A DNA stretch of 41,044 nucleotides from a virus: UHGV virus genome UHGV-0106252; one strand, 5' to 3'. A model generated the notes under the pieces. It was not told the DNA's origin. It was given only the letters and a program-made list of their open reading frames with translations, and did no database searches. How positions within the stretch are numbered: the stretch's first letter is position 1; each line of letters starts with the position of its first letter. The translations under genes and the position numbers were made by a program. Shown here one piece after another: positions 24,577 through 24,849 of the stretch.

Positions 24577-24849
24577 ATGACACACATGATCTTTCGTCAT
24601 GGCGACATGAAGAAGTGGAAAGGCGTTGGCTACGACTTTGAAATCGTGAAAGCCGAAGAGCTTCAGGAATATCTGGATGCTGGTTGGTTTTCACATCCTG
24701 ATGACCTTTTGAAGGATGTTGCAGAGCCAGAGCCAGAGCCAGAGCCAGAGCCAGAGCCAGAGCCAGAGCCAGAGCCAGAAGAAAAACAGCGTAAAAATCC
24801 TGGTCGAAAACCTAAGGCGGCAGCAGATGAACCTGACAACGAAGGGTGA
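24577..24849 (+). CDS. Small protein with (Glu-Pro)9 repeat, inserted between coat and gp4
   Basis: 90-aa ORF with GGAGA SD. Central [18 protein letters not shown] and basic C-terminal tail; 3' end overlaps the gp4 start by 23 nt. Confidence 0.5.
24724..24777 (+). repeat. Perfect tandem hexanucleotide repeat (GAGCCA)9
   Basis: Nine uninterrupted GAGCCA units (54 bp) encoding (EP)9. Confidence 0.95.

Follow-up and report, generated by a model that had tools for sequence, protein, structure and literature searches.

Between the coat gene and gene 4 of a P22-like phage genome lies a short open reading frame built around a perfect hexanucleotide array. The locus raises the question of whether this frame is a gene, whether it has been added to the P22 gene order, and what the array may do inside it. 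The window, that is the whole stretch of DNA analysed (41,044 nucleotides), belongs to an E. coli phage or prophage of P22-like (Lederbergvirus) type with a mosaic genome. The phage records nearest to it, IME10, Dewey, HZ41, Bas106, APC_JM3.2 and Louie, cover at most 58% of its first 25 kb, with about 96-97% identity. The late operon runs in the order terminase, portal, scaffold, coat (23237-24532), 90-aa ORF, gene 4, gene 10 and onward. Features at the junction between coat and gene 4 are as follows.

24538-24565, plus strand: stem-loop plus T-run, with a 9-bp stem and a UUCG loop, directly after the coat stop
24566-24569, plus strand: Shine-Dalgarno GGAG, 7 nt before the ATG of the orf69-family gene
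24577-24849, plus strand: orf69-family gene (PHROG 1175), ATG at 24577, TGA at 24847-24849, 90 aa plus stop
24827-25327, plus strand: gene 4 homolog (head-tail adaptor), PF11650, E 6.3e-58

An earlier note on this DNA had described a 90-aa ORF with its own Shine-Dalgarno sequence, placed after the coat terminator and overlapping the start of gp4, and each element was recovered, as GGAG, as a hairpin with its T-run, and as an overlap of 23 nt. The coat gene was identified by PF11651 (E 2.8e-166) and stops at 24532. The hairpin begins six bases past this stop codon, with an RNA minimum free energy of -18 kcal/mol (z -2.46); it corresponds to the stem_loop that follows gene 5 in the P22 annotation, and is kept in distant relatives. 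The GGAG context upstream of the ATG is also present in P22 and other relatives. The extent of the overlap with gene 4 follows from the homology of gp4, which starts at ATG 24827 and aligns from there with residue 1 of P22 gp4. As a side observation, the T-run of the hairpin (24560-24565 in the window) is polymorphic among prophages, being T6 or T5 (also in loci L021 and L022). We also considered that RNA of the repeat might pair with the 3' arm of the hairpin and act as an antiterminator. This idea was rejected: by the time the repeat, about 165 nt further downstream, is transcribed, the decision to terminate has already been taken.

The gene had been taken for an extra one, P22 being said to have none between coat and gene 4. 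This proved wrong: P22 has orf69 at that place. When distant members of the family were used as tblastn queries, they led to a P22 CDS recorded as 'orf69: unknown', immediately 5' of gene 4. In the curated P22 record BK000583, the coat gene occupies 4804-6096, the stem_loop 6102-6119, orf69 6135-6344 and gene 4 6328-6828, so that the place, the hairpin upstream and the overlap with gene 4 are all shared with the window. The P22 protein (DAA00988.1) is 69 aa long and reads MKIAIYKPGG...DGWLDHPSKLLPVEADDVKPRKGRKPKAVSDADKD. The window ORF (E 4.6e-33) and P22 orf69 (E 4.5e-31) both match PHROG 1175 ('unknown function'); residues 1-88 of the window protein align to profile positions 1-72 of 72, i.e. 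over its full length. A direct BLASTP comparison gave 33% identity (E 1e-8). The layout is also the same, with an N-terminal domain containing GWxxHP, a linker, and a tail of the form K/R-G-R-K-P-K-A. The P22 protein differs in being shorter and nearly neutral, and its short linker, PVEADDVKP, is a nonrepetitive stretch of 9 residues without any microsatellite. Profile match, position and strand, conserved residues and the basic C-terminal patch thus all place the window gene in the P22 orf69 family. The gene is not an insertion, and its counterpart has been annotated for decades, without an assigned function, in one of the best-studied phages.

The family is widespread. Relatives of 35-42% identity, drawn from metagenomes as well as genomes, all showed the order coat, ORF, gp4, with P22_CoatProtein and P22_Tail-4 genes as neighbours. 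A 601-base query made of the 3' end of coat, the ORF and the 5' end of gene 4 matched 217 of 5426 complete E. coli genomes, at least 173 of which cover at least 80% of the query, this allele included. In nearly all the E. coli rows listed, RefSeq has a 'hypothetical protein' separating the capsid gene from that of gp4, and hundreds of protein clusters of the family come from Escherichia, Salmonella, Shigella, Yersinia, Citrobacter and Klebsiella. We conclude that a large share of the P22-like phages carry a small late gene of orf69 type between the coat hairpin and gene 4. Two of the matching E. coli records, NZ_CP081778.1 and NZ_CP081786.1 (strains 0H24 and 0H26, 39,448 bp), are as large as a phage genome and contain the stretch from coat through the orf69 homolog to gp4, with just one Glu-Pro unit. 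They presumably are the two matches that were counted as plasmid-borne, and may represent P22-like genomes that are extrachromosomal or have been excised. A second copy of the region is found in the 0H24 chromosome.

Whether the 90-aa ORF is translated was addressed through substitutions. Over the 144 nt that precede the repeat, 17 close loci showed 12 variable sites, of which 8 were third-position synonymous changes, 4 fell at first positions and none at second positions. The other two frames over the same 144 nt gave 2 and 3 synonymous changes. In addition, the Glu-Pro frame was open in 17 of the 17 loci examined, despite a number of units going from 1 to 33. Judged on these sequence comparisons, the 90-aa ORF is a real coding gene, read in the Glu-Pro frame.

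Some public records imply another reading, in which the repeat belongs to gene 4: gp4 would start at ATG 24716 and carry an N-terminal (Ser-Gln)n extension, the 90-aa ORF being spurious. The segment concerned is the following.

24716-24826, plus strand: spurious +1-frame extension of gene 4 (MLQSQSQ...), not truly coding

ATG 24716 does open a 203-aa ORF in the gene 4 frame, the GenBank/RefSeq records of IME10, Dewey and Louie annotate gene 4 with this extension, and the GAGTCA variants found in Louie are synonymous in that frame. Set against this, in two E. coli contigs (L016 and L017) the gene 4 frame is broken by two TAG stops inside the repeat, while the Glu-Pro frame is open; the stops stem from arrays with CTA (Leu) codons. 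Homology to P22 gp4 and to Pfam P22_Tail-4 starts exactly at ATG 24827, which is M38 of the extended ORF. Upstream of 24716 many stops interrupt the gene 4 frame, in which most of the substitutions found there are non-synonymous. RefSeq PGAP annotation of E. coli genomes, for its part, gives a short gp4 and a separate hypothetical protein. The in-frame TAG stops, together with gp4 homology from 24827 only, refute the (Ser-Gln)n frame for this lineage, and we regard this reading as almost certainly wrong. It follows that gene 4 is wrongly annotated in three public phage records, which give it a false (Ser-Gln)n extension and leave out the orf69 gene. The false gene 4 lies at 1817-2422 in our locus L002 (IME10, RefSeq and GenBank), 1817-2410 in L003 (Dewey) and 1817-2404 in L006 (Louie). 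The orf69 homolog is unannotated in IME10, and is not annotated as such in Dewey and Louie.

A second objection to a gene would be that nothing but an untranslated spacer separates coat from gene 4, its chance reading frame being kept open by the 6-nt periodicity. The ORF does go unannotated in some phage records (IME10, HZ41, Dewey and Louie), and no Pfam family covers it. Nevertheless, the Shine-Dalgarno sequence and the ATG are conserved, the third-position bias and the frame open in every locus argue for translation, and homologs of 30-40% identity, P22 orf69 among them, are found in the same position. A plain spacer is in our view very improbable. The earlier note had named loss of the start context in relatives, or signs of an untranslated spacer, as what would count against a gene; what was found instead is conservation of the Shine-Dalgarno sequence, of the ATG and of the coding bias.

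Taking the 90-aa ORF as a gene of the orf69 family, its product could be divided into a folded N-terminal domain, an acidic linker and a basic tail, of which the first and last correspond to the following segments.

24577-24714, plus strand: N-terminal folded domain, residues 1-46, beta-hairpin plus helix
24778-24846, plus strand: C-terminal tail, a basic Gly/Pro patch and then an acidic end

AlphaFold, run with a family alignment of 21 sequences, gave a pLDDT of about 90 for residues 1-40, and 56-70 elsewhere, with no secondary structure in that remainder. In the model, residues 2-14 and 17-25 form strands, residues 26-34 a helix and residues 43-46 a short turn. Among the 21 diverse family members, G36, W37 and P41 were invariant and H40 was present in at least 90%. 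The disordered acidic linker reads A-(EP)9-EE, the repeat itself being residues 50-67. The basic Gly/Pro patch is found at the same place in relatives, several of which have RGRP cores. By our own count the net charge of the window protein is about -13. Two minor observations concern this product. The codon at 24796-24798 gives the window protein an Asn (RKNPGRK) that is rare at this place in the basic patch, Lys (RKKPGRK) being present in almost all close relatives. One member of the family, an E. coli protein of 93 aa (P0015), carries a tandem duplication of 13 residues where the N-terminal domain ends, so that larger duplications also occur in this gene.

Searches for a relative of known function, by structure or by sequence, found none. 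When the window protein, P22 orf69 and relatives were compared with the Pfam, NCBIfam and PADLOC models, only low-complexity matches came back (procyclin/PARP, TonB, DnaX), far below cut-offs, and no PADLOC defence family was matched. The N-domain profile, used in a large protein search, returned among the 120 matches listed only 'hypothetical protein', and no informative fusions. The family profile, compared with PDB sequences that include the P22 and Sf6 virion structures, matched no chain at E <= 1 except for a spurious de novo TIM barrel. An ordered role in the virion is therefore without support, although a small, disordered or low-copy protein could escape such a comparison. The literature searched, which did not extend to the main P22 genome papers, yielded neither an experiment nor a paper on what orf69 does, the matches to 'orf69' being unrelated genes, and nothing relevant came up on P22/Sf6 gene order, phage Glu-Pro repeats or the DNA string of the repeat.

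Four partial likenesses to other proteins deserve comment. It had been suggested that the (EP)n rod resembles the proline-rich spacer of TonB-like proteins. The TonB (Glu-Pro)n-(Lys-Pro)m segment is regarded as an extended spacer, and the resemblance to it is real in composition: in both, acidic Glu-Pro dipeptides precede a basic segment rich in Lys and Pro, and residues 47-83 align to TonB 73-112 (NCBIfam). However, the score is 16.8 bits for a cut-off of 315, and the window protein has neither a membrane anchor nor the TonB C-terminal domain; no TonB Pfam domain was matched and no hydrophobic segment is visible in the 90-aa sequence. The likeness is thus compositional only, and does not amount to homology. 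The same is the case for Trypanosoma procyclin/PARP (PF05887), which also has a long Glu-Pro dipeptide repeat but was matched at 22.9 bits for a cut-off of 100, a low-complexity match to an unrelated organism and context.

In the tail, some relatives come close to an AT-hook (PF02178): tails of the form KRRGRPPK or RRGRPS are found in P0134, P0139, P0140 and P0147, and the best of them, P0134, scores 14 bits for AT_hook against a cut-off of 17.4. At the aligned position the window has PGRKPK; its tail reads P-G-R-K-P, lacks the GRP core, and gave no Pfam match at E <= 1. Finally, GIY-YIG/HNH homing-endonuclease-like proteins (P0137, P0143 and P0150) contain in their C-terminal halves repeated 'EELQxYLxxGW' modules that resemble residues 12-51 of the N-terminal domain, with library-wide E-values of 1e-5 to 6e-4 over 4-5 stretches each, the scores being summed over repeats. 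We had considered this similarity as evidence for DNA binding and downgraded it: an unrelated SdrD-repeat surface protein (P0142) matches equally well, at a similar E-value, so that the likeness could be due to chance.

The linker is encoded by the array, which has the following limits.

24724-24777, plus strand: (GAGCCA)x9 microsatellite, encoding (Glu-Pro)9, TRF 100% matches, score 116

The nine perfect hexamers and the (Glu-Pro)9 that they encode were correctly described before. The 18-mer made of three GAGCCA units occurs 7 times, for 0.00 expected (100 shuffles). The earlier note had further proposed that the repeat is prone to in-frame variation in length, and that copy numbers be compared across related genomes. 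This comparison gave 2 units in Bas106, 5 in HZ41 and Louie, 6 in Dewey, and 8 in IME10 and APC_JM3.2. In E. coli prophages the range was far wider, and always in frame: 88 listed E. coli records with full-length matches, whose unit counts were derived from match length, had 1, 2, 3, 4, 5-10, 12, 14-20, 24, 29 or 33 units. The commonest number was 4 (21 of the 88 listed records). Four long arrays were read directly, and had 33, 29, 24 and 20 units, all perfect, in ORFs that were all intact. Some match lengths, off by one from a multiple of 6, had led us to suspect frameshifted alleles. In the two such loci that were read (L021 and L022, out of eight), the extra or missing base was the T5/T6 difference in the T-run of the hairpin, outside the ORF.

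Pairs of loci with identical 410-nt flanks differed in their number of units (33 vs 29 in one pair, 24 vs 16 in the other), from which it follows that length change outpaces point substitution. Perfect units and a copy number that differs between near-identical sequences are what is expected of a coding microsatellite, or VNTR, and replication slippage would, as expected for such an array, be the mechanism. Short arrays were often degenerate, with DP, ES, EQ, ET or EL units, in which the first, acidic residue is kept and the second varies (P, S, Q, T, L). In one lineage a 24-nt higher-order unit had been re-amplified, and in a 42%-identical relative of another lineage the linker was likewise encoded by a hexamer array, (CCAGAG)x5. 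We found no published description of this copy-number polymorphism; one GenBank record, that of APC_JM3.2, flags the array with a repeat_region feature.

A further allele shows how much the middle of the gene can change. Common in E. coli P22-like prophages, the WDGH allele (PF25311; PHROG 3769; e.g. P0132) encodes 195 aa, and occupies 4001-4588 in loci L013 and L014. It sits at the same coat-gp4 locus, with a homologous N-terminal domain and an identical C-terminal tail, but a WDGH domain of 100 residues, uncharacterised in function, replaces the Glu-Pro linker. Given this allele, the lack of a repeat in P22 and the range of 1 to 33 units, the repeat region looks like a length-tolerant spacer. 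From the spread of copy numbers we infer that linker length is nearly neutral.

The explanation that we favour, and consider probable, is that the gene is the E. coli-lineage homolog of P22 orf69, whose linker has become an in-frame, slippage-prone (GAGCCA)n array acting as a length-tolerant spacer. The gene would be packed against gene 4 closely enough for translational coupling. Its product combines a 46-residue N-terminal domain with GWxxHP, a disordered, acidic and proline-rich linker, and a short basic Gly/Pro tail that is AT-hook-like in some relatives. The linker would grow and shrink by replication slippage in steps of 6 nt, so that the frame is never lost, and, being length-tolerant, its copy number would drift widely (9 units here, 1-33 in E. 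coli prophages).

Another proposal would be that the peptide is dispensable, and that translation of the ORF is what matters: ribosomes that reload after the coat hairpin would be delivered to the start of gene 4, and so set the output of gp4. This would suit a linker that tolerates almost any length. The junction with gene 4 was tight in every relative examined, with overlaps of 23, 17, 11 or 1 nt, or a 3-nt gap. The PKA codons (CCT AAG GCG), whose DNA is conserved between P22 and the window, contain AAGG just upstream of the gene 4 ATG. This AAGG is likely the ribosome-binding site of gene 4, and conservation of the tail may thus be due in part to it. A leader of this sort would not, however, account for the protein itself. 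Homologs at 30-40% identity keep an invariant G, W and P and a near-invariant H in a domain that is modelled with confidence, and substitutions concentrate at third codon positions. A pure leader would not keep a fold, nor take a 100-residue WDGH insertion. Coupling and a protein function are compatible; coupling as the sole function is unlikely given the conserved fold.

The variability of the array could alternatively be adaptive, its length tuning a rigid acidic rod, or a mimic of the DNA backbone, so that subpopulations would differ in defence evasion or in assembly. Long arrays are indeed perfectly pure, up to 33 units, and change in length between loci with identical flanks; the same hexamer array is found in the 42%-identical relative, and in degenerate arrays an acidic residue (E or D) is kept while the second position varies. 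Yet a 6-nt unit cannot switch a gene on and off, and the broad continuum of 1 to 33 units, with a mode near 4 in the 88 listed records, is what mutation and drift are expected to produce. P22 and many relatives have no repeat, and no PADLOC defence model was matched. As positive support comes down to the hypervariability itself, we find a contingency locus of this kind quite unlikely.

Returning to the length-tolerant spacer, the function of the protein that it would connect can be approached from its layout. We weakly favour, as one possibility among several, a two-ended tether or adaptor, in which the N-terminal domain would bind a protein partner and the basic tail a nucleic acid or an acidic surface. 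A simple DNA-binding role of the tail is disfavoured by the net charge of about -13, by the non-canonical AT-hook, and by the absence of the protein from the solved P22-like virion structures. More specifically, a late tether could have its N-terminal domain on the portal, gp4 or the capsid interior and its AT-hook-like tail on DNA, (Glu-Pro)n serving as a mutable ruler of reach and charge. Such a ruler seems to us distinctly improbable. If it existed, phage lineages would vary, heritably and with rapid reversal, in head completion, in DNA retention or in how they interact with a host defence, and the array would make a core morphogenetic operon the site of a contingency locus of the length type.

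Whatever the function, the array is of use in itself. It is a clean and highly polymorphic in-frame VNTR (1-33 units), which could mark strains of P22-like prophages in E. coli, and it constitutes a natural experiment in which a linker tolerates almost any length. The layout of domain, linker and basic tail, together with the WDGH allele, offers a starting point for the function of orf69.

Three other features were noted in passing. In Dewey (L003, 1-270) and Louie (L006, 1-276), the coat gene is immediately preceded by an HNH endonuclease gene in the opposite orientation, at a position where the other relatives have the end of the scaffold gene; this HNH gene may be a homing-endonuclease insertion. 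Elsewhere in the window, an imperfect tandem repeat of 42-nt period (26949-27072, 3 copies, 70% matches) is found inside an ORF (26746-27699) that occupies the position of P22 gene 26, the tail needle; this period would fit a coiled-coil heptad periodicity. Finally, two perfect arrays of the 11-mer TTGTCCAACGG (9042-9073 and 9108-9136, 2.9 and 2.6 copies) lie inside a 296-aa replication-initiator-like ORF (8656-9546), in which they encode CPTVVQRLS twice; by analogy with lambdoid O genes, they look like origin iterons located within the initiator gene.
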